In this document: positions 2,492 through 20,038 of the stretch, piece by piece | Layout of the letters: each line of letters starts with the position of its first letter | Position numbering within the stretch: position 1 is the first letter of the stretch | Virus genome (UHGV): UHGV-1340863 | Direction: 5' to 3' (one strand) | DNA from: a virus | DNA length: 20,038 nucleotides | The notes under the pieces: model-generated | Database searches by the model: none | What the model was told of the DNA's origin: nothing | The model's input: only the letters and a program-made list of their open reading frames with translations | Made by a program: the position numbers and the translations under genes

Positions 2492-2591
2492 NNNNNNNNN
2501 NNNNNNNNNNNNNNNNNNNNNNNNNNNNNNNNNNNNNNNNNNNNNNNNNNNNNNNNNNNNNNNNNNNNNNNNNNNNNNNNNNNNNNNNNNN
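2492..2591. other. Scaffold/assembly gap (100 N)
   Basis: Run of exactly 100 n characters. By gene order it should contain about 143 codons of E C-terminus, the E-FI intergenic spacer and about 16 codons of FI. Confidence 0.99.
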
Positions 2592-2944
2592 AACACGATG
2601 ATATTCACCACACCGCTGGCGTTCAGCGCGTAGGCTTCGATATCGTCGGTCGGGTCATACGTGGACTTGTCACGCTTGCTCCACTCCGTGCCGCCGGACT
2701 GCGTGATGTTATTCTCCTCACTGCGGCCCATATCCACCTCAACCGGATCGAAGGCTTCACCGGTCATGGTGTATTTGCCCTTAAGCACGGCAGAAACTGC
2801 CTGCATCTCTTCGACCTGAGCAATGGCCAGCTCTTCGTCACGCATGTTCTGCATGATGATGCGACGGCGGCGGTAAGCCGGGTCCACCAGATTCTGCGGA
2901 TCTTCATCCGGCAGGCGACGCAGGGTCATCTGCGGATTCACTTC
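2592..2944 (-). pseudogene. E: Major capsid protein E, internal fragment (about codons 83-198), separated from its N-terminus by the inserted element
   Basis: Translation (E)VNPQMTLRRLPDEDPQNL...ITQSGGTEWSKRDKSTYDPTDDIEAYALNASGVVNIIV matches lambda gpE. No start codon (the track's M is GTG = Val in context); upstream in frame is element-derived P-K-H then TAA at 2954-2956. Confidence 0.9.
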
Positions 2945-2982
2945 ATGCTTGGGTTACATGAGTCAAATAGAAAAAAGATACT

Positions 2983-3010
2983 TGATTTAACAGAGATTTA
3001 TTTTATAAAT
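2983..3010 (+). promoter_or_regulatory. Candidate sigma70 promoter upstream of the TIR gene (TTGATT-N16-TATAAA)
   Basis: TTGATT at 2983-2988 and TATAAA at 3005-3010 with 16-nt spacing in an AT-rich leader. Pattern match only. Confidence 0.25.
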
Positions 3011-3031
3011 GAGAGGGTGCAGAATTACGTA

Positions 3032-3052
3032 GCAATACATGCTGCAATACAT
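3032..3052 (+). repeat. Direct repeat GCAATACAT x2 (candidate integrase arm-type sites, attL side)
   Basis: gcaatacat at 3032-3040 and 3044-3052; the same GCAATACA motif recurs at the other element end (13525-13561). Confidence 0.5.
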
Positions 3053-3162
3053 GGTTAGGGAAAAGCCTTCTTGGCATCGTACAAAAAACAAACCGAATTT
3101 TTTCTAACACAGCCAAGTAAAGCCTCCTTCACTTAATTAGTTAAATTATAAAGGAATATTCA

Positions 3163-4305
3163 ATGAAAATTTTTCTTGCTCATGCAAAAGAAGATGAAAC
3201 GATAACTGAAGAAATCTATGAAAGGCTAAAAAGTGGAGGATATTCCCCTTGGATGGATGTAAAAGATATACCCGCTGGCGTAAACTGGGATTATGAAATC
3301 CAAAAAAACTTCGCTAATTCAAACTTGATAATCCTTATCCTTAGCAAAGTGAGCACTCAGAAAAATGGTTATATTCGCCGCGAAATAAATGACGCCATTG
3401 ATAAACTAAAGTATTACAAACCAGATGATGTGTTCGTGATACCATTACTTATTGATGATTGCGAAGTACCCGCCTACATATCAAGCAAGCTCCAATTCAT
3501 TGATTTTAAGAGAAATGATGGTTGGGACATTTTATCTAGATCTTTAAGATTAGCAGCATCGCAACAAAAACTTGAAATATCTCAAGGTATCACTTATGGG
3601 CCATTTAACTTTAGCAGCGAGGTTTTCAAGGAAGAATATAACAAGATCCCAGGGCATGAAATTGAAATAGCATATCCAAGAATTGAAAGCCATACATTAC
3701 CGAAATCAGCAAAACTCATTAGTGATTACTTTTCAGGAAAAGCGGCTTTACATATTTTTTCTGAACGCACATCACTATGGCCAGGAACACCATATTGGGA
3801 TGAAGAATATAAACACACTTACACTAGTTCCTATAATGAAAGTTATAACATCTCATACTGTAACGAAAATGTCATGAGCATCCTTCATTCCGTACATTGG
3901 TATGGTGCGGGAGCAGCACACCCTAACAGTCATTTTGAAACTAGTAATTTCGTAATAACCAAGGATGACTACGCATACAAATTTAGTTTATGGGATGTAT
4001 TTACCGAAGGGAAAGAGCAAGAAGCGATTAATAAGATAAAACAAAAAATAATCTCTGAATCAGCTCGTGAATTTTGGGAGAAAACTGGTGAAAAACCAAG
4101 TGAGGACGACATTAGTACGTTTGCAACGGGTATCATGGATAGTAACTTAGACTCGTTCACAATAAATAGTGATGGATTTAGATTCCATTTTGCACCTTAC
4201 GAAATTCATGCATATGCTTTTGGTTCTTGGGAATTCTTTATCTCATTCTTTGAAGTAATAGACTTCCTTAAAGAGGATGGAATTTACTCTCTAATAAGGA
4301 GTTAA
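3163..4305 (+). CDS. TIR-domain protein (N-terminal TIR about 135 aa plus about 245-aa C-terminal domain of unknown function); candidate anti-phage NADase-type defence protein
   Basis: 380-aa ORF with AAGGAA Shine-Dalgarno 7 nt upstream of ATG. The N-terminus MKIFLAHAKEDE...GYSPWMDVKDIPAGVNWDYEIQKNFANSNLIILILSKVSTQKNGYIRREINDAIDK...DDVFVIPLLID has the bacterial TIR pattern, with a candidate catalytic Glu near residue 74 in YIRREI. Strongly AT-rich compared with its neighbours. I cannot assign the C-terminal domain by eye. Confidence 0.75.
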   Translation: MKIFLAHAKEDETITEEIYERLKSGGYSPWMDVKDIPAGVNWDYEIQKNFANSNLIILILSKVSTQKNGYIRREINDAIDKLKYYKPDDVFVIPLLIDDCEVPAYISSKLQFIDFKRNDGWDILSRSLRLAASQQKLEISQGITYGPFNFSSEVFKEEYNKIPGHEIEIAYPRIESHTLPKSAKLISDYFSGKAALHIFSERTSLWPGTPYWDEEYKHTYTSSYNESYNISYCNENVMSILHSVHWYGAGAAHPNSHFETSNFVITKDDYAYKFSLWDVFTEGKEQEAINKIKQKIISESAREFWEKTGEKPSEDDISTFATGIMDSNLDSFTINSDGFRFHFAPYEIHAYAFGSWEFFISFFEVIDFLKEDGIYSLIRS

Positions 4306-4314
4306 CATTTCAAT

Positions 4315-4337
4315 AAGCCTGAAATTTAATCAGGCTT
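4315..4337 (+). terminator. Hairpin downstream of the TIR gene (candidate intrinsic terminator)
   Basis: aagcctga (4315-4322) / tcaggctt (4330-4337) with a 7-nt loop, followed by an A/T-rich tail atatacatttcc; begins 10 nt after the TIR stop codon. Confidence 0.4.
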
Positions 4338-4659
4338 ATATACATTTCCTTATGATTAAATTATTGCTGTTCTTAAGCAAAGATGCAGCCAGAAGTAATT
4401 CCCCCTCAAGCTTGCTTGCACACATAAAGAACTGACACAAAACTCTGCTGTAAAGTTGTCTAGCCACACAGCAAAAAACATATGAAACTTTGTTATTCGC
4501 AAACTGCTTGCTCTATATTCCACCATCAAGGCGCATAAAGCAATTGCAATGGCGCAGAAGTAGGCCATAACTATGAAGTGAAGCTAGCGGCGCGTTATTG
4601 GCCGCTTCTGAATAGTGCCTGATTCAACTCAGGGATAAGATTTTTTCTGGTGATAGACC

Positions 4660-4850
4660 GCGACGGATGGCAACAAAACCAGAGAAAGGAAACGACAGAG
4701 GCCAAAAAGCCTGTTTTTAGCACCTGTCGTTTCCTTTCTTTTTAGGGGGTGTTTTTAATAAAAACATTAAGTTACGGCGAAGAAGAACGGAAACGCCTTA
4801 AACAGGAAAATTTTCACAAATAGCAAAAAACTGCGCGCCTGACGCCCCGT
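4660..4850 (-). other. Second, element-borne lambda-type cos site (cosB-like R/I-site region plus variant cosN-like sequence)
   Basis: 4674-4840 aligns by eye, same orientation, with the helper cosB at 19872-20038, differing at roughly 10 positions. The adjacent cgcgcctgacgccccgtaacg (4829-4849) resembles the lambda cosN region (GTTACG GGGCGGCGACCT CGCGGG, from memory) but is variant. Confidence 0.8.
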
Positions 4851-4903
4851 AACGTTCTGGATCGCCGGAAAGGACCCGCCAGCCAGAGCGGGCCCTAATT
4901 TCA

Positions 4904-5287
4904 TCAACCAATCAGCTTATAGCGACCATCCCGTGCATTGCGGCGTACACGCTCAATCTTGAGGCATAGCGCCGCATCTGGCTTTTTTGGGACAGGTACG
5001 CGGCAATATTCAGAAGCGCGAGGAATATTATTTATCCAGTCGATCACTTCACTTAAATACCAGGCCTTACGCCCTTCCGTAACCTGCACACGCTCCGGGA
5101 ACTCTCCACTAGCCTCAAGGTTTAGCAGTGTACGACGACTCAGGGTTGTAATTTCCATCACCTGATTCATATCAACAAGGCGCTCGCTTAAACACATTTT
5201 GTCAGCGATAGCTTTTAATTCCTCTACAGCTTGATTCGGGTACATCATTTCGGCAATTGGCTTAAGGTCATTGTAATCATTCTGCAT
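4904..5287 (-). CDS. AlpA/excisionase-family wHTH protein, cos-adjacent (function unknown; regulator or packaging-redirection candidate)
   Basis: 127-aa ORF with AAGGGGGA SD. The segment ITTLSRRTLLNLEASGEFPERVQVTEGRKAWYLSEVIDWINN has the AlpA/Xis-type HTH signature; the gene ends 54 nt from the element cos. Confidence 0.6.
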   Translation of the reverse strand: MQNDYNDLKPIAEMMYPNQAVEELKAIADKMCLSERLVDMNQVMEITTLSRRTLLNLEASGEFPERVQVTEGRKAWYLSEVIDWINNIPRASEYCRVPVPKKPDAALCLKIERVRRNARDGRYKLIG

Positions 5288-5298
5288 TGTATCCCCCT

Positions 5299-5640
5299 TT
5301 ACACACGAGCCAGCGGCTGAACAGAAATACCTGAGCCAACAAACGCTGCAACCTTTACTGACAGTTCTTTAACAGACTCAGGCCAGTTCAGAGCATCAAC
5401 ATTTAAGACACCTGTCTTATAGACCTGAGCCTGTGTTTTTTTCGCGGTGTCGATTTGTACAGCGGAAACATAAACCGCTTTACCTACGCTCGAACCATCC
5501 CATACCACCAGTGCACCTGTTGCATCTTCCTGCATCAGTGGCGTAAATGCAGGAATTACCCCTTTATTAGCTGAAAATATCCCCAGCGTAGTCACCAGTG
5601 CTTCAGTGCCAGCCATGAGTTCAGTGTAATGAGTAGCCAT
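5299..5640 (-). CDS. Head decoration protein, lambda gpD-like (element-encoded paralogue)
   Basis: 113 aa; TPLMQEDATGALVVWDGSS...YKTGVLNVDALNWPESVKELSVKVAAFVGSGISV aligns with lambda D ([19 protein letters not shown]...[34 protein letters not shown]). AAGGGGGAG SD; start 10 nt after the E-like gene stop. Confidence 0.8.
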   Translation of the reverse strand: MATHYTELMAGTEALVTTLGIFSANKGVIPAFTPLMQEDATGALVVWDGSSVGKAVYVSAVQIDTAKKTQAQVYKTGVLNVDALNWPESVKELSVKVAAFVGSGISVQPLARV

Positions 5641-5649
5641 TGCTCCCCC

Positions 5650-6690
5650 TTAGCCAATGCGAACGGTAACAAAACGATTGATGCGGGCCGGTATTGGCTG
5701 TGGTGCTGAATGTGTCTGCACATATTCAATAGCCGGATCACCAGGCACAATATAGTTTTTCGGTGCAAGTTCGGCTTTAGTCAGCCCCATTCGGATTAGC
5801 TCCGGATCCTGAATACCGCCATAGGCGACAATCCCCTGAAGAGCCGTATTGCCAAGCACCATCAAATCAGGATCAAGGAAATGTTTTTCTGTTCCGTCCT
5901 CGTCGGTATAACGCCCGCTGTAAACAACAATCGCAACATCGCCCATATACCCTTTAAAACTCACCGAATCACCAAGGTCTTTAAGGGCCGTTTCCAGTTC
6001 GGAATTAGAACCACGACGGGTATCCAGAGCCTCTTTTATCGCTCTGAATGAACGGTATTTCTTCCATACATTACCGCCCATAATGATAATATTAGTGACG
6101 CCCTCACTAAATTCTGCGTAGCTCTCAATATCATCATTTGGATCAAAAGTTTCTTTATCCTTACCTGACCACTCAGCACCGCCAGACTGAGTGATGATAT
6201 TTTGTGGTTTAATATTCCAGTCCAGCTCATAACGTTCAATACCATCGCCCTCAATGATATTTTTCCCCGTTGTGATTGCCTGAACAGCAAGCCATTCAAT
6301 ACGTGCACGAATAGCTTTAGCTTGATTTACAATCGCCTGTTTAACTTTAATATTACGCGCCCCAAAAGCATTGTATTGCTCAGGTGATACACCAGCAGGG
6401 CGCACAGCTAACTTATTTGGATCAATGCTGCTTTTCGGCTTCATATAGCCTGGACGAATTGTTTTTGATTCGTACCCTTCGTCACGTGAAACTTTACTAC
6501 CCACCATAGGAGAACAAAACGCTGCAATTGGGATATTTGGATCGTCGATTGTATCAAGAATAATATCGCGCGATTCAAACATTACCGAGCGAGTAAAAAA
6601 CAAACTGGTAAACAACGCATTTAGTTGTTTTTGTACATCTACAGCATTAACCACCTGTACAAGCTGAGTAGGCGAATATAAATCAACCAT
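5650..6690 (-). CDS. Major capsid protein, lambda gpE-like (element-encoded, diverged paralogue of the interrupted helper E)
   Basis: Aligns with lambda E along its whole length, e.g. NIITQSGGAEWSGKDKETFDPNDDIESYAEF vs NNITQSGGTEWSKRDKSTYDPTDDIEAYALN, and FRAIKEALDTRRGSNSELETALKDLG...GDVAIVVYSG vs FKAVKEKLDTRRGSNSELETAVKDLG...GDVAIVVYSG. Start set at ATG 6688-6690 (MVDLYSPTQL..., SD AGAGG) rather than the ORF-track start at 6864; 346 aa vs 341 for E. Confidence 0.85.
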   Translation of the reverse strand: MVDLYSPTQLVQVVNAVDVQKQLNALFTSLFFTRSVMFESRDIILDTIDDPNIPIAAFCSPMVGSKVSRDEGYESKTIRPGYMKPKSSIDPNKLAVRPAGVSPEQYNAFGARNIKVKQAIVNQAKAIRARIEWLAVQAITTGKNIIEGDGIERYELDWNIKPQNIITQSGGAEWSGKDKETFDPNDDIESYAEFSEGVTNIIIMGGNVWKKYRSFRAIKEALDTRRGSNSELETALKDLGDSVSFKGYMGDVAIVVYSGRYTDEDGTEKHFLDPDLMVLGNTALQGIVAYGGIQDPELIRMGLTKAELAPKNYIVPGDPAIEYVQTHSAPQPIPARINRFVTVRIG

Positions 6691-6864
6691 ACGCATCCTC
6701 TTTGCATTCATTAAAAATAATTGTGGATATATGCTATCACCGATATTTGTCATGCGAATACATGCAACCGAGTGCAATGTTGTATAAAGTTTTGGGGTGA
6801 CAACTTCAGTGCGGAAAATTAGTGTTAATATCTTCACTCCCTTTGGTCGGGATTTATGTAGCAT

Positions 6865-6899
6865 GCCGGAAAATTTATTTTTTCCGGCCTTTTTTTATT
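6865..6899 (+). terminator. Strong intrinsic-terminator-like hairpin, active in plus orientation
   Basis: gccggaaaa (6865-6873) / ttttccggc (6880-6888) stem followed by a run of T residues (6889-6899). On the minus strand the stem is not followed by a U-tract. Confidence 0.5.
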
Positions 6900-6907
6900 G
6901 GCAATAT

Positions 6908-7357
6908 TTAAAACGGGATATCATCTCCCCATTGCTCATTATCTCCCACTGGTGGCTGGCTTCCTTGCTGATCTGCCTGTTGTTTTGCTCTGTTCAGTGC
7001 GTCAGTAGCCTGCCCCTGTTGGCCTTTATTGCCGCCCGGTCGCACCGATCGCGCACTGATTACGCTGTCTGCGATAACCTGCCAGCCCTGCCGCGTTTCG
7101 CCGTTCTGTCCAGTCCACTGGCTCATCTGCATGTTACCCGCCACGCTCAGGAGTTCGCCTTTGTGATGCTTTGCCAGCGCGTCGGCTTGTCTGCCAAACG
7201 CCAGGACAGATAACCACATCGTCGCCTGACCGTCATCCGACTGACTGCAGGGCAGTGATACCGCCATACGCGCCAGCGTCATGGGGGTGCCCTTGCTGGT
7301 CTGTTTTGTCTGCGGGTCGTCCACCAACCGCCCGTAAACTGATATTTGCGCCGTCAT
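6908..7357 (-). CDS. ssb: Single-stranded DNA-binding protein (SSB)
   Basis: 149 aa; N-terminal OB-fold-like region (ISVYGRLVDDPQ..., WTGQNGETRQGWQVIADSV), Gly/Gln-rich linker and the hallmark acidic C-terminal tail ...WGDDIPF. GGAGAG SD; ATGA overlap with the upstream ORF. Confidence 0.8.
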   Translation of the reverse strand: MTAQISVYGRLVDDPQTKQTSKGTPMTLARMAVSLPCSQSDDGQATMWLSVLAFGRQADALAKHHKGELLSVAGNMQMSQWTGQNGETRQGWQVIADSVISARSVRPGGNKGQQGQATDALNRAKQQADQQGSQPPVGDNEQWGDDIPF

Positions 7358-7599
7358 GCTGCCTGCTCTCCGGACTTAATATTGATTGTTGTCACTTCCT
7401 CCGCTTCAGCAATCTCCCGTTCGGTCAGAGTGGCAAAGTTTGCAGCCGCCGTTGTCATGAATGCGCTAATCAGTTCGGGATGTGCTTTCGCGTATCCTTC
7501 CCCGGCGTTGCGGTCGATGATTTTTATCGACACCCTTAACCAGTGTTCCGTCAAATCAAGGGCGTGCGATTGTGATTTTTTTGTGTGCTTCGCTGTCAT
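7354..7599 (-). CDS. Hypothetical protein (81 aa), translationally coupled to ssb
   Basis: ORF between the iteron cluster and ssb; its stop overlaps the ssb start (ATGA). No recognisable motif; weak RBS. Confidence 0.45.
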   Translation of the reverse strand: MTAKHTKKSQSHALDLTEHWLRVSIKIIDRNAGEGYAKAHPELISAFMTTAAANFATLTEREIAEAEEVTTINIKSGEQAA

Positions 7600-7650
7600 A
7601 GGCTTTATCTCACAGCAGTAAATTAAAATTTTTGCGTTTTAACCCTTCAC

Positions 7651-7873
7651 CTGTTCACCTTTTGATATTTTCTCTTTTAATTCATAATGTTAATTGGTGA
7701 ACAGTTTCACAAAAACTATTCACCAACTGTTCACCACTGTTCACCCTTGAAGCTCAATAAACAATCAAAAAGGTGAACAGTGAATAGTTTGGTGAACAGT
7801 TCATAAATAACTGTTCACCCTATAATATACTGATATAAAAGATATTTATGACAGGGTGAACAGTGGTGAACAG
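7651..7873. repeat. Iteron cluster: at least 9 copies of GGTGAACAG/CTGTTCACC in both orientations; candidate satellite origin of replication
   Basis: Copies at 7651-7659, 7696-7704, 7727-7735, 7737-7745, 7772-7780, 7791-7799, 7811-7819, 7855-7863 and 7865-7873, embedded in AT-rich DNA immediately downstream of the replication-protein gene. Confidence 0.8.
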
Positions 7874-7886
7874 TTATTCCATAAGT

Positions 7887-9707
7887 TTAATTTTTGCTAT
7901 CGTCATTAGTGACCGATACACATGATGGCATCCAGTCTTCTGATTCCTCCGTCAGTGTCACGTTTGAACGCAAACCGTGCTTCGTTTTCCGTTTCATATA
8001 CTCCCTGCCATATTCCGCCATTGCCCCCGGCATATCTTTACCGAAGCGCGTCAGTGTTACAGGTTTACCAAACCCATGTGCCCTCATATAAGCCAGATAG
8101 GCATGATAGAGATACCTGCGTGGGCTGAATGGCACAATTTCAGCATTACCCACTAACAGGCCATCACACATTACCGATGCCATGAGATAGCCGCAGAAGT
8201 CCACCAGCGAATCCCCCTCTCGCTTTATCGCCAGTGCTTCTTCAGATTTCTGCTGCTCATATAACAGGCGTCTGGCTTCGTCCTGATCAGCAAACCGTGT
8301 AAGCAGATGGCGAATCACTACCGCCAGCTCACCTTCTATTTTTTCCGCCAGCATCGAATCGCGTTCGTTCTCCGGTACAACTTCCGAAAAATTGAATATC
8401 ACCCGACGACGTGAGATCCCCCCGCTGCGGTCACTGAATGACATGGCGTTATTGTTAACCGCCAGCACTACTGCCGGAATACGCGTTGAATAGGGGGCTT
8501 TGTGTTTCGGGTCAATTGCCACCTTGTCACCGCCTGTAATGGCCTTAATCCCTGCCCCATCACCAGCGTAGCGGGTCATATCCGGCATGATAATCAGCGA
8601 AAAGCCAACCACTAACGCACGTTCCCTTGCATCTTCCAGCGCCTTCATGCTTGCTGATACTGTATTAGCCTTACCCGCCAGCATGGTGCAAATCTCCGCC
8701 ATCACACTTTTACCACTTCCCCCCGGCCCTGTTACCTCAATGAATAACTGCCAGTCGTACCGGTTCGCCAGCACCATGAATAATGCCGCCAGTACGCGAT
8801 CTGCCTTGCGGTCATTCTCAGCCACCGAACGGCGCAACCACTTCCAGAAATTCGGCGCATGTGTTGCCAGCGTTTCCCCCTCTGCTGGTGGGCTGAAAGG
8901 TAATTCACTGGCAATTAACAACCAGTCGTTTTTGTTATGCTCCCGAAAGTTACCAGTTCTGGTATCAAATACCCCGTTACTGAATCCAATCAGGTTACGG
9001 GCTGTATTCCCCATTACAGGCAAACTTAACTTCATGGTATCTACCGCCGATTTAATAGCGTTCTGCGAATAGCTGATCTCCGCATCAATGAAAATCTGCG
9101 CCATAGCACGCTGTAACTCTTTATCCTGAACCGGCTCCCATACAACGCCGTTGTAATGATGAACGGTGTCAGAGTCGGCATTGATTGCCAGTTCGCCGCC
9201 GTAATGTGCAAGGAGAACTTCACCGCGCTGGCTGGCCCCCATCTGATTCAACGCCAAAGATGAAGCACGCTCGTCATTTTTGCGCTCAGCCTTCTTAACT
9301 GGCAGTTCAATCACCAGACTTTCCCCATGCTCCGCTTCAGCTTTTAGGCCGACAAGGCGCGGAGTCCAGTCTTCAGGCTCTCGATCAACAAAGCTACGGT
9401 AACAACGTGCTTCCTTTACGCCTGCAATAGCAAGTAATGTCGCAACCTTCGTCAGACTTTTCTCTGCAATCTTTCCGGCACGATAAACACGCACATAATG
9501 ACGGCCTTCATCGATAATTTGCATATCATCCAGGTTTTCCAGTTGTTCCGTACCCAGAATGACTGGTGGTGTATCATCTGCTGCAATATGCTTACCTGCC
9601 CATTCATTCCATTCTTTTGCATGGCTCCAGGCATCACTGCCAGCAAAAATGATGACTTCCGTCATTTTGTCGCGCGGTTGGTATTTTAAGTTCGGAGCAC
9701 GTTTCAT
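7887..9707 (-). CDS. Replication initiator: D5/P4-alpha-type SF3 helicase-primase (PICI Pri-Rep-like)
   Basis: 606 aa; Walker A motif VTGPGGSGKS with a downstream hydrophobic stretch ending in acidic residues (LIIMPDM); overall resemblance to the C-terminal NTPase of phage/plasmid primases. GGAGGT SD; ATGA overlap with the upstream small ORF; iterons directly downstream. Confidence 0.75.
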   Translation of the reverse strand: MKRAPNLKYQPRDKMTEVIIFAGSDAWSHAKEWNEWAGKHIAADDTPPVILGTEQLENLDDMQIIDEGRHYVRVYRAGKIAEKSLTKVATLLAIAGVKEARCYRSFVDREPEDWTPRLVGLKAEAEHGESLVIELPVKKAERKNDERASSLALNQMGASQRGEVLLAHYGGELAINADSDTVHHYNGVVWEPVQDKELQRAMAQIFIDAEISYSQNAIKSAVDTMKLSLPVMGNTARNLIGFSNGVFDTRTGNFREHNKNDWLLIASELPFSPPAEGETLATHAPNFWKWLRRSVAENDRKADRVLAALFMVLANRYDWQLFIEVTGPGGSGKSVMAEICTMLAGKANTVSASMKALEDARERALVVGFSLIIMPDMTRYAGDGAGIKAITGGDKVAIDPKHKAPYSTRIPAVVLAVNNNAMSFSDRSGGISRRRVIFNFSEVVPENERDSMLAEKIEGELAVVIRHLLTRFADQDEARRLLYEQQKSEEALAIKREGDSLVDFCGYLMASVMCDGLLVGNAEIVPFSPRRYLYHAYLAYMRAHGFGKPVTLTRFGKDMPGAMAEYGREYMKRKTKHGLRSNVTLTEESEDWMPSCVSVTNDDSKN

Positions 9708-9991
9708 TTGTTACCTCCGGCAACTAACATTGCCCGAATTTTACGGATATAGCCTGCGGCACGCCTCTGATTATCTGTCTTGCAATTTTTTACCAGAATG
9801 AAATCTCTTTCGAACTGCTGACGCGGCATAACACATTCAAAATCATAACCATCACGCAAATAAGAGACACGACGATCATCAACCGAAATAATCTTTACCC
9901 GATAGCCATAGCTGTCTTTGAAAATATCCCCAAGGCTGATTTTTGAATGAGTTTGACCGCTGGCAATAAAGCCAGAAAATTTATTTTTCAT
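9704..9991 (-). CDS. Hypothetical protein (95 aa), replication operon
   Basis: ORF in an operon-like array with stop/start overlap to the helicase-primase gene; no recognisable motif. Confidence 0.5.
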   Translation of the reverse strand: MKNKFSGFIASGQTHSKISLGDIFKDSYGYRVKIISVDDRRVSYLRDGYDFECVMPRQQFERDFILVKNCKTDNQRRAAGYIRKIRAMLVAGGNK

Positions 9992-9994
9992 TTT

Positions 9995-10219
9995 TTATTC
10001 TCCGGTATAGCTCTGGTCGTGTATTTTTATAGCTTCATCCAGCTCTTTGATGACAGGATCAAGTAACGTAATTAACGCTCCAGCTAAATTAGCATCCCGT
10101 TCATCGTGTTCCGCATTTGTTGTCCCATCAAGCCAGGTTGATAAGATTTCTCGCATATTTTTGCCACAAACGAGCGCGTTTTCAGCATGTGTCAGCACTT
10201 TAAAATAAAGATCATTCAT
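9995..10219 (-). CDS. Hypothetical protein (74 aa), replication operon
   Basis: Strong AGGAGGTG SD upstream of ATG at 10217-10219; overlaps the end of the upstream ORF by 8 nt. Confidence 0.5.
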   Translation of the reverse strand: MNDLYFKVLTHAENALVCGKNMREILSTWLDGTTNAEHDERDANLAGALITLLDPVIKELDEAIKIHDQSYTGE

Positions 10220-10577
10220 GGCACACCTCCTGACGAATACGGGCGGCGAATATCATCACGTAGCCAGTTGGGAATTGCTGGCGGGCTTCCTGTTCGCTGG
10301 CGGCCTCGATGTGTATTACGCGTGGTTGTGCGGTGCTCAGGGCGATAAAACGCCAGATGAAATTGTTTTCGCATTTCTGAATAAACAGCGTGTTTTCTTC
10401 ACGCCCTTTCCAGAAAGCCGCAGTATAGCCCATCTCCTTAACCATCTTGCGGGCATCAACCAGCGTGTCAGCGGCAACATGTACCGTAGTTGCTCCATCT
10501 GCCATGCGGTCGTGGTGTAGTGCCAGAAAGGTGTATATAAATTTAGGGTGAGTTTGGGTATGCTGTGTTCCAGCCAT
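10212..10577 (-). CDS. Hypothetical protein (121 aa), first gene of the leftward replication operon
   Basis: C-terminal 121 codons of the 304-aa track ORF, starting at ATG 10575-10577 (MAGTQHTQTH...) with a GAGGT SD. The long N-terminal extension in the track overlaps the operator region and the divergent gene and is rejected. Confidence 0.5.
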   Translation of the reverse strand: MAGTQHTQTHPKFIYTFLALHHDRMADGATTVHVAADTLVDARKMVKEMGYTAAFWKGREENTLFIQKCENNFIWRFIALSTAQPRVIHIEAASEQEARQQFPTGYVMIFAARIRQEVCHE

Positions 10578-10664
10578 AATCGTTACCTCGTTTAACGGTT
10601 TGGTTAGAAGCCCGGTTAGTGTTCGCGCACTGCCGGGTTTCGTCGTTTTTATGAATCGATCATT

Positions 10665-10766
10665 GTGAGATACATAGCGACCATGATGTGAGATATACAT
10701 TATATTGTGGTGATATACATTGCAAGTGTTTTTATATCTCACTTTTGTGTATAGTGATATACACAT
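10665..10766. promoter_or_regulatory. Operator-like repeat cluster (GTGAGATA(TA)CAT x5, one inverted) in a divergent promoter region
   Basis: gtgagatacat 10665-10675, gtgagatatacat 10688-10700, gtgatatacat 10710-10720, inverted tatatctcac 10733-10742, gtgatatacacat 10754-10766; lies between the divergent genes starting at 10577 (-) and 10786 (+). Confidence 0.6.
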
Positions 10767-10785
10767 AACAAATTGGTGATTAACT

Positions 10786-11088
10786 ATGTCTGTATACAAA
10801 AATGCAAAATCGCAAATGACAACGATCAGGGTTCCCCACGATGTTATGGAGGGCATGGAATCCGTAAAACTGGACGGCGAAAGCAACGCCGGATTCATAG
10901 TAACCGCCATGCGCGGTGAGATCGCCCGCCGCCAGGCAGAAGGAAGCGGAGAAAATCCCCTCGTGTCTTCACTGGATGCCTTAGCTAAGGTCGAACAAAT
11001 CGGCATCAAGGCAGCGGAGGAAATCGGGCAACTCGTAGCCGTCGCTCGTGAAGAACTCCAGCGGCGTAAAGCCAAAGAATCTGAATAA
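10786..11088 (+). CDS. Putative small DNA-binding regulator (possible ribbon-helix-helix fold), divergent from the replication operon
   Basis: 100-aa ORF with GGTGA SD; N-terminal TTIRVPHDVMEGMESV resembles an RHH beta-strand/helix start. Position next to the operator repeats fits a repressor or activator role. Fold assignment is a guess. Confidence 0.45.
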   Translation: MSVYKNAKSQMTTIRVPHDVMEGMESVKLDGESNAGFIVTAMRGEIARRQAEGSGENPLVSSLDALAKVEQIGIKAAEEIGQLVAVAREELQRRKAKESE

Positions 11089-11097
11089 TTACTATCA

Positions 11098-11124
11098 GCG
11101 CCGTGATGTGAGTAACTACGGCGC
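11098..11124 (+). terminator. Hairpin downstream of the regulator gene
   Basis: gcgccgt (11098-11104) / acggcgc (11118-11124) stem with 13-nt loop, 10 nt after the stop codon; the downstream tail is only moderately T-rich. Confidence 0.35.
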
Positions 11125-11438
11125 ATTGCTATGTAAATACTGGCAATAAACAGAAAAGGTAGTTCTACTCCGAATAATTTTATCTGACACTACTCCTGAA
11201 CTAACATGCGCTTATCTTACAGGATATAAATATAGATCCATAAAATCACGATTAAATAAAGTCGCTCCAAACATAAACCACACCCAACGCTTAACAAGAT
11301 AGCAACAAACAGATAAATAACTTGCAGAAATATTTATCGCAAGGATTATCATTATTAATTACAAATCACTTTACCAAGTCATTCCCCTCTCTTATCATAA
11401 AGAGAAAGTAATAAATAAGTTAAGGGAGTTAGAATACT

Positions 11439-11975
11439 ATGAATCTAAAAAAAATAGCCACAAACATAAAAAACAAGATAATAGAAACATTCAATAAACT
11501 TATATTAGAGGCATCTAAAACCCCCACACAAGATGAAATTAAAATACTTGAGAGAAGAAGTAAAAAGTTTAATTACTCCTTTTTCTCATACGCAGTCACA
11601 GGAGCCATAATGGTTTTTTGCTCTCAACCATTAATAAAATACGCAAACCCAATGCTTATTTTATTGAGTGGTCTGTTACTGTCTATCATCATTATCCTTC
11701 TCAGAATGATTTATATTTCACAAGCGAATGCATCATGGACAACCAAAAAACGTTCACATGTACTAGTTCATTTTCTTTCTGCATGTTTCATAGCGTCAAC
11801 ATTGACGTTGTTATATCAGGCTTACGATAATAACATCACACACAAATTGTACTGTAAAAATATACAACAACTTATTGAAAAAAGGATAGAAACAGAAAAA
11901 AATATCAGCATATTCAGTGGGATGCAATGCACCCCGGCATATGATTACTCTTTATTTGGATTTAATCTCTTATAA
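11439..11975 (+). CDS. AT-rich multi-pass membrane protein (178 aa), function unknown; cargo gene candidate
   Basis: Three hydrophobic helices (AVTGAIMVFCSQPLI, MLILLSGLLLSIIIILLRMIYI, VLVHFLSACFIASTLTLLYQAY); GGGAG SD upstream; strongly AT-rich island (about 11100-12040) flanked by GC-richer element genes. Confidence 0.6.
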   Translation: MNLKKIATNIKNKIIETFNKLILEASKTPTQDEIKILERRSKKFNYSFFSYAVTGAIMVFCSQPLIKYANPMLILLSGLLLSIIIILLRMIYISQANASWTTKKRSHVLVHFLSACFIASTLTLLYQAYDNNITHKLYCKNIQQLIEKRIETEKNISIFSGMQCTPAYDYSLFGFNLL

Positions 11976-12044
11976 AGAATGTTATTACTGATTTGAGTGC
12001 AAATTCTCAAATCAGTAATTCATAATATTTTATTCTGAGATAAT

Positions 12045-12272
12045 TTAAACTACCCACTCACCTCGAATCCATGCCTGCACTTCTGAAAGACGATATGCAA
12101 CAGCAGTGGAGCCAATCTTGATCCGCTTAGGAAATTTCCCTTCCTTCTCCAGCTTCCAGCGTGTGCTGTTCGCAAGAGTGGTTAGCTCCCGACATTCTTT
12201 CTCACGGATCATACGATCGATGTTAGGAATGTACTCCAGACCCTTTTTATCAACAATCGCCATTTTTTTCAT
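12045..12272 (-). CDS. AlpA-family HTH protein (excisionase / transcriptional activator candidate)
   Basis: 75 aa; LTTLANSTRWKLEKEGKFPKRIKIGSTAVAYRLSEVQAWIRGE matches the AlpA/Xis HTH pattern (..EGKFPKP.K.G.R...W...E.Q.WI); directly downstream of int. Confidence 0.75.
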   Translation of the reverse strand: MKKMAIVDKKGLEYIPNIDRMIREKECRELTTLANSTRWKLEKEGKFPKRIKIGSTAVAYRLSEVQAWIRGEWVV

Positions 12273-12273
12273 G

Positions 12274-13509
12274 TTAACCAGCCTTTTGTTTGAGGATTAT
12301 CACTTTTGAATCAGCACCTGCGATGCTATTGAGATATGTAGTCCAGAGTTCCAGAGCATCCAGTTTTTTAGCCATAAACTTACTCCGGTTGTAAACACCT
12401 GCCACGCCAGGTAGCGCATGGCCTAACAGTTGTTCTACTACATAAAATTCAACACCGAGATCACTTAGATGAGTAGATAGCGTTCTTCTAAGGTCGTGTA
12501 GTGACCATTGTTTTTCATGGCCCAAACGTTTACCGATTTTCCCCCCAATCTTGCTTACGCTTTCTCTAATTCGCAGACTTCCCAGCACATAACCAGTATG
12601 TTTTGTCTCTTCGTGAACATCCGTTACCCACTGTCGTAGAATTTCAGGTACTGGTCTGACGATTTCAACACCAGTTTTTGAGTGATCTTTTGGTACAGTC
12701 CAAACCCAACTTTCGAGATCCCATTCGCTCCATTCTGATAATCGGGCTTCACTCATTCGACATCCAAATACTGTACAAAGTACAAACATTTTTCGCGTGT
12801 ATTCAGACATTAGTTTTAAATCAGGCTCGACAAAAATTGCTTTCCAGAGCTGGCCCAGCTCGGCTTCATCCAGAACCCGATCCCGCTTACCTGCAATCTG
12901 CCCCACATCACTCATGCGCAAATCCTTTAAAGCATCACACGTCGCGTACTGGCGTACCCGACAAAAACGAAGAGCTAATTTAGTGTCAGAAAAAACATAC
13001 GCCGCCATAACTGGTGCATTACGTTTAATTCGGTCAAAACAGTCCAGCCATTCATATAGGTGAGTGTCATTTACAGGCAAATGACCGATATAGGGAAAAA
13101 TATGCTTTCGAAATCTGCCAAGCGTTACAGCATGAGTTTTACGACGCACCTTACAGTAATTTTCATACCAGTAATTTAGTGCATCCTCCACTGTGACCGG
13201 CTTTAAGCGTTCTTCAGCCTGAATCTTAATCTGGATACGCGGATCACGTTTGTCAGCCAACCAACCACGGCACTCGTCGCGCTTTTCCCTTGCCTGTTTG
13301 AGTGACATATCAGGATATTTACCCAACGTTAGCCAGACCGGAGCAGCCCGGCCACCTGCTAACCTGTAGAAGAAAACAAAGCTCACAGCCCCCTTGGTAC
13401 TCACACGAATAGAAAGCCCCTTTCCATCAGCAATGGTGATCTGCTTTTCTCTGGGTTTCCCCAGATATCCTTTAAGTGCTTTGTCGCTCAGTTTGTTCTC
13501 GCCAGCCAT
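12274..13509 (-). CDS. int: Tyrosine site-specific integrase (P4-type, N-terminal arm-binding domain)
   Basis: 411 aa from ATG 13507-13509 (MAGENKLSDK...); C-terminal catalytic region with HDLRRT and LLGH motifs plus a downstream Tyr; terminal gene of the element, beside the right junction. Confidence 0.88.
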   Translation of the reverse strand: MAGENKLSDKALKGYLGKPREKQITIADGKGLSIRVSTKGAVSFVFFYRLAGGRAAPVWLTLGKYPDMSLKQAREKRDECRGWLADKRDPRIQIKIQAEERLKPVTVEDALNYWYENYCKVRRKTHAVTLGRFRKHIFPYIGHLPVNDTHLYEWLDCFDRIKRNAPVMAAYVFSDTKLALRFCRVRQYATCDALKDLRMSDVGQIAGKRDRVLDEAELGQLWKAIFVEPDLKLMSEYTRKMFVLCTVFGCRMSEARLSEWSEWDLESWVWTVPKDHSKTGVEIVRPVPEILRQWVTDVHEETKHTGYVLGSLRIRESVSKIGGKIGKRLGHEKQWSLHDLRRTLSTHLSDLGVEFYVVEQLLGHALPGVAGVYNRSKFMAKKLDALELWTTYLNSIAGADSKVIILKQKAG

Positions 13510-13524
13510 TTTAAGCCCCAAAAA

Positions 13525-13561
13525 GCAATACAAGCTGCAATACAGAGATGATTGCAACACA
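13525..13561 (+). repeat. Direct repeats GCAATACA x2 plus GCAACACA (candidate integrase arm-type sites, attR side / int leader)
   Basis: gcaataca at 13525-13532 and 13537-13544, gcaacaca at 13554-13561; same motif and orientation as 3032-3052 at the opposite end. Confidence 0.5.
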
Positions 13562-13641
13562 CAGATAACGAGGAAAATCCAGTGAAAGCGCCAGATAGAC
13601 TTATTCTTTATTATCAAAAGATTAAGTGTAAAAACCAGCAA

Positions 13642-13917
13642 CTACACGAAAGCCTCAGAAAGCCATGCTAAGTGCTTCGGCTTGACATATCCCGGCGTAA
13701 ATTCAGAGGTGGAGCCGCCACGGGAACGGATAACCTCACCGGAAACAATCGGCGAAACGTACAGCGCCATGTTTACCAGTCCCGGAATTTGTGAGAGATA
13801 GACTTTCTCCGTGGTGAAGGGATAGCTCTCACGGAAAAAGAGACGCAGAAACAGCGGATCAAACTTAAATTTCTGCTCATTTGCCGCCAGCAGCTGGGCG
13901 GTTGTGTACATCGACAT
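13642..13917 (-). pseudogene. E: Major capsid protein E, N-terminal 82 codons fused to 9 element-derived codons and a stop
   Basis: MSMYTTAQLLAANEQKFKFDPLFLRLFFRESYPFTTEKVYLSQIPGLVNMALYVSPIVSGEVIRSRGGSTSEFTPGYVKPKH matches lambda E 1-82, then LAWLSEAFV-stop encoded by element sequence (13642-13671). Confidence 0.9.
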
Positions 13918-13972
13918 AAAAAAATCCCGTAAAAAAAGCCGCACAGGCGGCCTTTAGTGATGAAGGGTAAAG

Positions 13973-14305
13973 TTAAACGATGCTGATTGCCGTTCCGGCA
14001 AACGCGGTCCGTTTTTTCGTCTCGTCGCTGGCAGCCTCCGGCCAGAGCACATCCTCATAACGGAACGTGCCGGACTTGTAGAACGTCAGCGTGGTGCTGG
14101 TCTGGTCAGCAGCAACCGCAAGAATGCCAACGGCAGCACCGTCGGTGGTGCCATCCCACGCAACCAGCTTACGGCTGGAGGTGTCCAGCATCAGCGGGGT
14201 CATTGCAGGCGCTTTCGCACTCAATCCGCCGGGCGCGGTTGCGGTATGAGCCGGGTCACTGTTGCCCAGCGGCTGGTAATGGGTAAAGGTTTCTTTGCTC
14301 GTCAT
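13973..14305 (-). CDS. D: Head decoration protein D
   Basis: [12 protein letters not shown]...[11 protein letters not shown], 110 aa, matches lambda gpD; start taken at the internal ATG that reproduces the lambda N-terminus. Confidence 0.92.
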
Positions 14306-14314
14306 AAACATCCC

Positions 14315-14920
14315 TTACACTGGTGTGTTCAGCAAATCGTTAACGGCATCAGATGCCAGGTTACCTGCAGCCAGCGGTGCCGGTGCCCCCTGCATCAGAC
14401 GATCCAGCGCAGTGTCACTGCGCGCCTGTGCACTCTGTGGTGCAACTGCCAGAATGCGGCGGGCCGTTTCCACGGTCATACCAGGGGTTTCGGCCAGCAC
14501 GCGTGCCTGTTCTTCGCGTCCGTGAGCTTCCTCACAGTTGAGGATCCCCATAATGCGACTGTTTTCTGCCGCAACCGCTGCGGTGATCTGCGCGTTCACG
14601 TCCGGCTGCGCAGCGCTGGCGTTCTCGCCCTCCGTCGCTGGCACCACGCCAGTAACGTCAGCCTGCGAAGCAGTGGCTGAAACAGTTGTTGATTGAGTCT
14701 CTTTGGTCATTCGCCCTCCTGAGAGACGGGATTTACGTGCATCCAGTGCATCACGCATGACGGTGATCGCATCGGTACTGTTAACAAGTTCATCAGCCAG
14801 TCCGGCATCAATGGCCTCCTGACCGCTGTACACTGCAGCCTCGGTATCCAGCACAGCCTGCACGGACAGGCCGGTATATGCCGACACCTTCTGTGCAAAC
14901 ATCCGGCGGGTTGCATCCAT
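14315..14920 (-). CDS. Nu3: Scaffolding protein Nu3 (in-frame internal start within C)
   Basis: In lambda, Nu3 is the C-terminal 201 codons of the C frame; here an ATG lies exactly 201 codons before the shared stop (MDATRRMFAQKVSAYTG...). Confidence 0.7.
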   Translation of the reverse strand: MDATRRMFAQKVSAYTGLSVQAVLDTEAAVYSGQEAIDAGLADELVNSTDAITVMRDALDARKSRLSGGRMTKETQSTTVSATASQADVTGVVPATEGENASAAQPDVNAQITAAVAAENSRIMGILNCEEAHGREEQARVLAETPGMTVETARRILAVAPQSAQARSDTALDRLMQGAPAPLAAGNLASDAVNDLLNTPV

Positions 14921-15614
14921 CCGGGACTGCAGTGTTTCCCGGACATCATCCGGTAGATGGCTGTAGGGGTTGCCATCCACCTTATGGCTGCCGCTGTAAA
15001 TCAGCGTGATTTCCACGCCCTGTTTCTCCAGCGCAGCACCGTAATTACTGTGAGCCATCATGACGCCGATGGAGCCTGTCCGGGCGGTCTGCGTGACCAG
15101 ACGTCGGGAGGCGGCGCTGGCAAGCAACTGACCTGCACTGCAGTTCATGTCGTTGGCCAGCGCCCATACCGGCTTTATGTCACGCACACGGGCGATGATG
15201 TCAGCGCAGTCAAATGCCCCTGCCACCATCCCGCCTGGCGTATCCATATCGAGCAGAATGCCGTCCACCATCGGGTCGCTGGCAGCCTGTTGCAGACGGG
15301 CGATAATGCCGTTGTAACCGGTCATCCCCGAATACGGCTGCAGCGCTCGCGTCCGACTGACCAGCGTGCCGGACACCGGCAGCACGGCGATGCCGTTCAT
15401 GACCTGATAACTGCGGGCCTGTCGTGGTCCGTCATCATCAACGGATAACGCCAGCGCCGCGGGTGCCTCTCCGGCAGTCAGGCTGTCGCCGGATACCGCA
15501 TCCGTCAGGCGGCTGATCCCAAGCTGGCCTGCAAGCGCACAAAAGAAAACCCGCGCATAGGCGGGTTCAAGCATCAGCGGCTCATTAAAGGCCATACTGG
15601 CAATATGCGGGAGA

Positions 15615-15634
<20 letters not shown>
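14315..15634 (-). CDS. C: Capsid assembly protease C (GTG start)
   Basis: Matches lambda gpC from (V)TAELRNLPHIASMAFNEP... to ...NDLLNTPV; 439 codons when started at GTG 15632-15634, which has a GGAGG SD upstream. The longer track ORF is an upstream in-frame extension overlapping B. Confidence 0.9.
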
Positions 15635-19315
<3,681 letters not shown>

Positions 19316-19861: not shown

Positions 19862-20038
19862 TGTTCATTCCACGGACAAAAACAGAGAAAGGAAACGACA
19901 GAGGCCAAAAAGCCCGTTTTCAGCACCTGTCGTTTCCTTTCTTTTCAGGGAGTGTTTTAAATAAAAACATTAAGTTACGGCGAAGAAGAACGGAAACGCC
20001 TTAAACCGGAAAATTTTCATAAATAGCGAAAACCCGCG
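19862..20038 (-). other. Helper cosB region (Nu1-binding R sites and IHF site); window ends at the edge of cosN
   Basis: Reverse complement reads CGCGGGTTTTCGCTATTTATGAAAATTTTCCGGTTTAAGGCGTTTCCGTTCTTCTTCG...GAAAGGAAACGACAGG..., matching the left end of the lambda genome just after the 12-nt cohesive end GGGCGGCGACCT (from memory). Confidence 0.85.

Follow-up and report, generated by a model that had tools for sequence, protein, structure and literature searches.

Helper-embedded PICIs (HE-PICIs) are a family of satellites described by Tommasini, Mageeney & Williams in 2023 (PMC10111431). In that account, 201 elements are tabulated at the site E:Phage_cap_E:80, the type element being Eco567.11capE of E. 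coli NRG857c, and the doubled motif, its fixed spacing, the cos copy and the excision to attP and attB are all presented. The doubled motif, given as tgTGTATTGCantgTGTATTGCa, is placed twice in each attP, 81 ± 2 upstream and 132 ± 2 bp downstream of the centre, and AlpA or another protein is left as its possible binder (PMC10111431). Following mitomycin C, precise excision of Eco567.11capE to attP and attB was recorded by both qPCR and deep sequencing (PMC10111431). Classical PICIs, as characterized in the same source, integrate in chromosomal genes apart from the helper and are without the doubled motif, unlike the locus analysed here; the EcCICFT073-type Gram-negative PICIs share with it the size, the int-alpA-primase order, a cos copy without terS and a lambdoid helper (PMC10111431).

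In the satellite P4, the integrase carries an N-terminal arm-type DNA-binding domain, and attP contains the repeat GGGGGCA in two co-oriented tandem pairs with a 12-bp period, which flank the core, the pair next to int being just upstream of that gene. The P4 core, which is given in its record, is a 20-bp identity with a tRNA-Leu gene, and the helper of P4 is P2-like. In phage lambda, mismatches between the attP and attB overlaps, as in saf mutants, lower recombination, and the products segregate either parental sequence. The saf effect is a laboratory observation made with a chromosomal attB.

The element and its relation to described satellites

The window, i.e. the whole 20,038-nucleotide stretch of UHGV virus genome UHGV-1340863 that was analysed, carries lambda-like prophage genes for head and tail, encoded on the minus strand (Nu1, A, W, portal, C and D, then FI, FII, Z, U and V). 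An island at 2946-13677 (10,727 bp, one core copy counted) is inserted at codons 79-82 of the lambda-type E gene, and between the two E fragments the G+C content falls from approximately 57% to 33-50%. The window is 100% identical to E. coli Rb-23 (NZ_AP025677) over 1-2491 and 99.99% identical over 2592-17901 (15.3 kb). The 100 N at 2492-2591 stand for 513 bases in Rb-23 and conceal the 3′ end of E and the 5′ end of FI; this run is a masking artefact and not biology. The Rb-23 helper sits at icd, like the published composite, and possesses int, xis, exo, bet, gam, repressor, O, P, Q and lysis genes, while the same C-terminal E fragment is entered by RefSeq in NZ_AP025677 as "major capsid protein, missing N-terminus". 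The features of the locus are collected in Table 1.

Table 1. Features of the satellite and of its junctions with the helper gene E (positions in the window).
Feature	Position	Strand	Remarks
Helper E C-terminal fragment, visible part, codon 82 onward	2592-2945	-	translation matches lambda E from ...HEVNPQMTLRR
Left core copy TGCTT	2946-2950		sole identity between the two junctions in the window
10-bp attachment block, satellite type (E-coding AACCCAAGCA)	2946-2955	-	differs from helper allele AGCCGAAGCA at positions 2 and 5
HE-PICI element-specific body	2951-13672	-	97.5-98.6% identity to Eco567.11capE over ~9 kb
Conserved core-proximal block (E-coding TTGACTCATGTA)	2956-2967	-	(nearly) invariant in 13 distinct, otherwise unalignable P arms
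P-arm (int-distal) doubled motif GCAATACA-tgct-GCAATACA	3032-3051	+	81 nt from core
TIR cargo (TIR_2 + DUF3298)	3163-4305	+	opposite strand, beside junction
cos copy, 157 bp	4673-4829		94% identical to helper cos region 19876-20032
AlpA-like (second AlpA-family protein)	4904-5287	-	
Decoration protein	5299-5640	-	37% identical to D
Satellite capsid protein	5650-6690	-	42% identical to E
SSB	6908-7357	-	
Primase, D5-type	7887-9707	-	ORF intact in window
DUF4222	9704-9991	-	
Icd-like	10212-10577	-	
AlpA	12045-12272	-	directly downstream of int
Tyrosine integrase, 411 aa, N-terminal arm-type DNA-binding domain	12274-13509	-	Pfam Arm-DNA-bind_3 3.7e-19, Phage_integrase 1e-16
P′-arm doubled motif GCAATACA-agct-GCAATACA	13525-13544	+	15 nt upstream of int start codon, 128 nt from core
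Third, degenerate copy GCAACACA, P′ arm	13554-13561	+	one mismatch; also in metagenome attP contig L067
Promoter-like TTTACA-18-AAGAAT, core to doubled motif, towards int	13603-13632	-	1 found vs 0.3 expected; weak consensus match
Right core copy TGCTT	13673-13677		helper-type block TGCTTCGGCT spans 13673-13682
Helper E N-terminal fragment, codons 1-80, running into core	13678-13917	-	reads into element: ...VKPKH-LAWLSEAFV-stop

The region 2940-3055 is identified with high confidence as the integrase-distal attachment junction (P arm plus core) of a 10,727-bp HE-PICI of the site group E:Phage_cap_E:80. Over approximately 9 kb the nucleotide identity of the island to Eco567.11capE is 97.5-98.6%, the only difference being in the junction-adjacent cargo, and the 97.5% DNA identity of the int region would place it within the HE-PICI clade and its capE subclade. 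Of the traits of the family, those of site, gene order and motif are found. A prophage late gene, E, is disrupted at about codon 80 with no replacement copy in attP; int, alpA and primase are co-oriented with the interrupted E, all on the minus strand like the other head genes; the PICI organization of about 11 kb comprises integration, replication and a late zone with captured capsid genes, together with a cos copy and no terS; and the doubled motif appears twice in attP, co-oriented and at fixed distances. Moreover, the window and Eco567.11capE have in common the integrase, AlpA, the replication module, the satellite capsid and decoration genes, the cos copy, the insertion point in E, the doubled TGTATTGC motif, its spacing and an icd-integrated lambdoid helper. 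They differ in cargo, a TIR_2 + DUF3298 protein in the window and HEPN and DUF262 genes in Eco567.11capE.

P4-like satellites are defined by sid, psu, delta, epsilon and alpha primase genes together with a P2-type helper, and domains of this set were not found among the ORFs of the element; where cf-PICIs are defined by capsid, protease, portal, connector and terS genes, just capsid and decoration genes are present. The helper is lambdoid, in contrast to the P2-like helper of P4, and the core lies in the phage gene E. The integrase is a distant relative of P4 Int (25% identity over 280 aa, E = 7e-17). Compared with phage records, it showed no match above 60% identity, the best being the 16.5-kb "induced prophage" vB_KppS-Ant with 50.6%. 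When the full window was scanned against Rfam, no P4-type immunity RNA (C4 or isrK) reached the gathering threshold, and PADLOC applied to the cargo and small ORFs gave partial TIR-domain matches only, with no complete known defence system. The arrangement, the attachment site and the GCAATACA repeats are real and were already published in 2023, and are therefore not new; the window adds one more member, with TIR-domain cargo and a mismatched core, and no new principle.

Junctions, target site and mobility

At the left junction, helper sequence ...cacttc (2939-2944) is followed by atgcttgggttacatgag, and at the right junction element sequence ...gccatgctaa is followed by gtgcttcggcttgacat. These sequences had been quoted correctly in the initial annotation, but the boundary given there is one base off at each junction, too far left at the left one and too early at the right one. 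Intact E at the site reads ...AAGCCGAAGCATGAAGTG, and in lambda and two E. coli prophages the codons are GTC AAG CCG AAG CAT GAA GTG, that is, CAT and not CAC. Therefore, the "a" at 2945 is to be counted with the helper, as the T of codon His82, and the "g" at 13672 with the element. The correction does not refute the crossover within a short common core that had been proposed, but sharpens it. The only block common to both junctions here is TGCTT, or AAGCA on the E-coding strand, and when the E fragments are joined at AAGCA/TGCTT an intact lambda-type E protein of 341 aa is obtained, the restored sequence across the core being, in outline, ...GGATTCACTTCA TGCTT CGGCTTGACATATCC....

Two alternatives were considered and not adopted. 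The likeness of TTACAT to TTGACAT beyond the core requires a 1-nt gap, and it was set aside as part of the common core because with such a gap the sequence would fall out of register with the cleavage sites; ungapped flanks do not match, and the 12-mers TAACCCAAGCAT and AAGCCGAAGCAC (E-coding strand) have in common only AAGCA, CC and one A. With the register CATGCT (attL tCATGCTt, attR cCATGCTa), attB would need 7 extra bases that are absent in intact E. As regards translation, the N-terminal E fragment ends after 9 foreign codons, and an in-frame TAA stop lies upstream of the C-terminal fragment. Read in the frame of E, the TTGACTCATGTA block gives ATG-TAA, so that translation does not enter the C-terminal fragment. 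As described above, the junction, the imperfect target copy and the repeats that had been noticed are all confirmed, and the splitting of helper E by a tyrosine-recombinase element is supported, given an integrase with Arm-DNA-bind_3 and Phage_integrase domains and TGCTT as the only common sequence.

Whether E is the regular target can be judged from the distribution of the integrase and its junctions. Of 5,426 complete E. coli genomes, 175 contain the integrase gene (95-100% identity), and in 173 of these 175 carriers (173/5,426 genomes) it adjoins the N-terminal fragment of E through the int-side junction. A pattern scan of IMG/VR for the int-side arm yielded 60 junctions, all 60 of which abut an E homologue, diverged ones included. 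Among intact prophages, the E alleles AAACCC and AAGCCG are each frequent (at least 120 matches for either one). Furthermore, most of the 201 cases tabulated at E:Phage_cap_E:80 have the 10-bp block in common with E (PMC10111431). E codon ~80 is the cognate site of the integrase, and the suggestion in the initial annotation that E served as a secondary or atypical attB is refuted by these genomes, junctions and published cases; no tRNA gene or other primary site, for which a search had been advised, is needed. A P4-type satellite with its primary site elsewhere, for example in a tRNA gene, could be argued to have landed in E by chance of sequence, the junctions here sharing just 5 bp with an imperfect target copy, and 28 off-target events among HE-PICIs at all sites and a small tRNA-Phe group with a near-identical integrase are on record (PMC10111431). 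This is already contradicted by the genome and junction counts and is very improbable. The only atypical aspect here is the pairing, in which the satellite core AACCC is mismatched with the lambda-type E allele AAGCCG.

With E as the cognate target, the tyrosine integrase of the satellite most probably recombined attP (E-coding ...TTGACTCATGT AACCCAAGCA C TTAGCATGG...) with codons 79-82 of E in the lambdoid helper, where the target reads ...TATGTC AAGCCGAAGCA T GAAGTG.... Recombination split E and supplied no replacement copy, and excision at the same core would restore intact E and release a circular satellite. The predicted attP is, in + strand outline, ...GCCATGCTAAG-TGCTT-GGGTTACATGAG..., with longer arms ...AAGCCATGCTAAG TGCTT GGGTTACATGAGTCAA.... 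The attP junction catgtAACCCAAGCACttagcatgg, which it had been proposed to seek in reads, gave 0 matches in IMG/VR, but a contig of a related element from a human-gut metagenome (8.65 kb, 2.9x coverage), the only match in the scan of the metagenome collection, contains it uninterrupted. The order on this contig is primase-SSB-capsid-decoration-AlpA-cargo-attP-int, and its cargo differs from that of the window. The contig confirms the attP sequence, including the C after AAGCA; a circle, a concatemer or a tandem pair would look alike.

The copy in the window and its helper might instead be decaying and no longer excise or transfer, in which case the att features would be a fossil with no present function. 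The tail-fibre pseudogenes of the helper in the near-identical Rb-23, where the primase of the element is annotated as frameshifted, point in this direction, as does the description of many helpers as truncated in appearance, with virions not recovered (PMC10111431). Against such decay, none of the ORFs for Int, AlpA, primase, capsid and decoration is broken in the window; int, xis, repressor, O, P, Q, lysis and head genes are still present in the helper; and the type element, which is 98% identical, excises on induction (PMC10111431). A fossil junction is considered unlikely.

Doubled motifs in the attachment arms

Exact copies of GCAATACA are located at 3032, 3044, 13525 and 13537, all on the + strand. 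Single GCAATACA 8-mers with one mismatch are not above chance in number (20 found vs 18.9 expected). The tandem GCAATACA-N4-GCAATACA occurs exactly twice in the window, once in each arm, where 0.01 are expected and none of 100 shuffles reaches two. Along 14 loci the spacing from motif to AAGCA is 81-82 nt in the int-distal arm and 128 nt in the int-side arm; the motifs of the window lie 81 and 128 nt from AAGCA, which corresponds to 81 and 133 when counted from its first base. Apart from the motif, a TCA block and the core-adjacent TTGACTCATGTA, which are conserved, 13 distinct int-distal arms do not align with one another. This pattern, as a matter of sequence comparison, can be regarded as a phylogenetic footprint, within which the block at 2956-2967 is a candidate core-type Int binding site of the P arm. 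The co-oriented repeats that had been remarked near both ends are thus tandem GCAATACA pairs, one in each arm, at constant spacing across diverged elements.

The features of a lambda/P4-type attP can be recognized here, namely a separate arm-binding domain in the integrase (Arm-DNA-bind_3, residues 7-93, E = 3.7e-19, Pfam) and, at conserved positions in each arm, a motif that differs from the core. As in P4, two co-oriented tandem pairs with a 12-bp period flank the core, and the pair next to int is just upstream of that gene, although the repeat itself is TGTATTGC where P4 has GGGGGCA. The comparison with a P4-type att site that had been recommended bears out the reading, since in the P4 record repeats arranged in this way bear the annotation "attP arm sequence repeat". 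Because the motif and its spacing are conserved, P4 has this layout and P4 Int has an arm-binding domain, the interpretation as arm sites is well founded by analogy. The doubled TGTATTGC motifs most likely seat the arm-binding domains of an Int tetramer; in each arm the tandem TGTATTGC-N4-TGTATTGC, whose distance from the core is constant (81-82 nt in P and 128 nt in P′), would do so as in the attP of P4 and lambda.

A different assignment, to AlpA as excisionase or to another regulator, for example of int transcription, has also to be weighed. Two AlpA-family proteins are encoded by the element, one of them directly downstream of int, the int-side motif has a promoter-like site on one side and the start codon of int on the other, and AlpA, left open as a binder, is tightly conserved in HE-PICIs (PMC10111431). 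A regulator site does not readily account for a motif that is present in both arms at fixed distances from the core, with four half-sites that fit an Int tetramer; Int itself has a recognizable arm-binding domain, and P4, whose Int has the same domain, shows the two-pair layout annotated as arm repeats. The roles of AlpA and Int are, moreover, not mutually exclusive. A regulator site in place of an Int arm site is judged rather improbable, and the doubled motifs are taken as probable Int arm sites.

The mismatched core as a possible exchange cassette

On the E-coding strand the 10-bp attachment block has the form A[A/G]CC[N]AAGCA, and in the window it reads AGCCGAAGCA at the int-side junction and AACCCAAGCA at the int-distal junction. 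Eco567.11capE shares the 10-bp AACCCAAGCA with the E allele of its helper, whereas the element in the window shares just AAGCA with the E allele of its own helper (AAGCCG). Among the 201 tabulated cases, the shared block is aacccaagca in 72, agccgaagca in 85, agcccaagca in 8 and aagca only in 18 (PMC10111431); the window belongs to this last, mismatched minority (18/201 tabulated). Where both junctions could be compared (15 loci), the cores are identical in 11, rare codons (CCA, CCT and AAA-CCG) included. All 15 int-distal junctions have T of attP type at position 0 and T of helper type after AAGCA, and all 60 int-side junctions have the attP base C after AAGCA. Elements that are 99.97% identical carry different cores, and positions 2 and 5 switch together between near-identical elements; the locus L023 and Eco567.11capE differ by 3 substitutions in an element of 11,077 bp, yet both core positions differ, at both junctions. 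A single P-arm lineage is seen as AC/GG, GG/GG and GG/AC, and as attP with AC.

From these sequences we infer that the strand-exchange (overlap) region lies inside A[A/G]CC[N]AAGCA, covering positions 2 and 5 and excluding the flanking bases. Were it so, the overlap would cover the mismatched positions, and the window would be one of the two segregants of a mismatched-core recombination. By analogy with lambda, for which the saf mutants and their heteroduplex overlaps may serve as a model for positions 2 and 5, such recombination is inferred to give heteroduplex products that segregate either type. Here the partners would be a satellite and a polymorphic phage gene, and the effect a natural one.

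Strand exchange may, however, be confined to AAGCA, with positions 2 and 5 belonging to core-type sites and varying by lineage and selection and not by exchange. AAGCA is the sole shared block here, and each junction is uniform in type to its left. An imperfect inverted repeat, CATGTAA ... TTAGCATG, around the core would centre a 7-bp overlap on CCAAGCA; position 2 would then be left outside, which is a mild conflict with the placement given above, although the position of the overlap taken from the inverted repeat is ambiguous and is for that reason not relied on. The overlaps of tyrosine recombinases measure 6-8 bp, and a 5-bp exchange would be shorter. In addition, exchange confined to AAGCA is at odds with the difference of both core positions between L023 and Eco567.11capE against 3 substitutions elsewhere, with the four states seen in one P-arm lineage, with the matching of rare helper codons at the satellite junction, and with the behaviour of intact E genes, in which the cassette is unlinked to SNPs 9 bp away (r2 at most 0.1) while flanking SNPs are linked across the site. 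Restriction to AAGCA appears doubtful, and an overlap that covers positions 2 and 5 is retained.

In intact E genes, positions 2 and 5 nearly always go together. AC and GG were each matched at least 120 times, GC 15 times and AG 0 times (separate scan for AG), in an arbitrary sample of the first 120 matches per pattern; among the matches listed, 234 E genes are uninterrupted (AC 108, GG 114 and GC 12). With statistics that ignore clonal structure, among the matches listed r2 between the cassette and a flanking SNP never exceeds 0.12, the SNPs 9 bp away on each side included, while the SNP at -4 is linked across the site to those at +68, +74 and +89 (r2 of 0.54, 0.41 and 0.35, respectively). 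Four 566-bp E backgrounds among the matches listed differ only by the cassette. The pattern is what short-tract exchange with satellite cores would produce; it suggests such exchange, as a lead and not as a result. An attempt to assign the core to the helper or satellite parent in mismatched composites through flanking SNPs did not succeed, as none of these SNPs is linked to the cassette.

Taken as a proposal, the 10-bp core would be not just a landing pad but a short cassette traded by the satellite and its helpers, to which we give an even chance. The overlap would span two synonymous positions in E codons 79-80 (AAA-CCC vs AAG-CCG), and integration or excision of mismatched partners could pass the helper allele to attP, or the satellite allele to helper E. 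The idea was not found stated in those parts of PMC10111431 on which the present comparison draws.

For the biology of the family, the arrangement means that the capsid gene of the helper is held hostage by the satellite until excision, while the satellite rides the replication and late transcription of the helper and carries variable anti-phage-type cargo right beside the junction. If the core is indeed exchanged, a single cycle would suffice for the satellite to adapt its attP to new alleles of the helper, and intact capsid genes would bear synonymous footprints of satellite visits, so that the history of the satellites could be read from silent sites. Such exchange would also explain how an integrase clade keeps pace with polymorphic phage targets.

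Attachment site and its target

An uninterrupted attP was found in L067, a human gut metagenome contig (ORSG01002381) with a coverage of 2.9x, in which the order is late zone, cargo, attP (positions 6605-6630) and int, and of which the cargo differs from that of the window. This contig represents a satellite in excised or concatemeric form, or else a tandem pair. On the target side, the intact E genes (L070-L324) displayed a synonymous two-base dimorphism at codons 79-80, AAA-CCC versus AAG-CCG, at high frequency among the matches listed. Among the same matches, the two bases vary together in tight coupling but show no linkage to SNPs 9 bp away, and in four 566-bp E backgrounds they are the sole difference. 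At the position equivalent to the att site, the satellite capsid gene reads AAGCCGAAAAGCAGC, and the AAGCAT portion of the target is therefore absent from it.

Satellite genes and possible regulatory sites

The features of the satellite and the related helper sequences are collected in the table.

Features of the satellite and its helper (window positions)
Feature	Position	Strand	Remark
Masked stretch	2492-2591		run of 100 N
Cargo gene, TIR_2 + DUF3298 protein	3163-4305	+	380 aa; adjoins junction
Satellite cos copy	4673-4829		157 bp, 94% identity to helper cos region
Satellite decoration protein	5299-5640	-	37% identical to helper D
Satellite capsid protein	5650-6690	-	42% identical to helper E
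Primase ORF	7887-9707	-	intact, 606 aa
Int-side doubled motif	13525-13544		
Promoter-like site, TTTACA-18-AAGAAT	13603-13632	-	directed toward int
Helper cos region	19876-20032		upstream of Nu1

The satellite interrupts helper E, yet it encodes capsid and decoration proteins of its own. It also carries a copy of the helper cos region, with which packaging of the satellite by the helper terminase would be consistent. Regarding int, the doubled motif is situated between the promoter-like site and the start codon, and the int-side arm repeats of P4 are likewise placed; this placement and the parallel with P4 hint that int may be autoregulated.

Helper prophage and related elements

Across 15.3 kb, the window and Rb-23, an E. 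coli strain otherwise 99.99% identical, are separated by one mismatch and one gap; the primase is intact in the window but frameshifted in Rb-23 (L001 20301-22120) according to the annotation. The masked stretch stands in place of 513 bases of NZ_AP025677, which take in the 3' end of E as well as the 5' end of FI. An ORF at 2138-2941 in the mechanical ORF list is an artefactual FI-E fusion that spans the mask. In Rb-23 the helper prophage (L068, NZ_AP025677 2217955-2239988) is located at icd. At its far end, the tail-fibre genes (L001 353-2104) are pseudogenes; also present among its phage genes are iss (serum survival) and an inverse-autotransporter gene of 4.3 kb. Among deposited phage records, the nearest integrase is that of LR881103.1 (vB_KppS-Ant, 50.6% identity), labelled 'induced prophage', which at 16.5 kb is probably, because of this size, another satellite rather than a phage.

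Variable cargo slot

PADLOC returned only partial TIR-domain matches for the cargo protein. The corresponding position is occupied by HEPN and DUF262 genes in NRG857c, host of the type element Eco567.11capE, and, in strain EC931, by an unrelated protein of 438 aa. Since different genes are found there, the position is a variable cargo slot of the satellite, of which the function is probably anti-phage.
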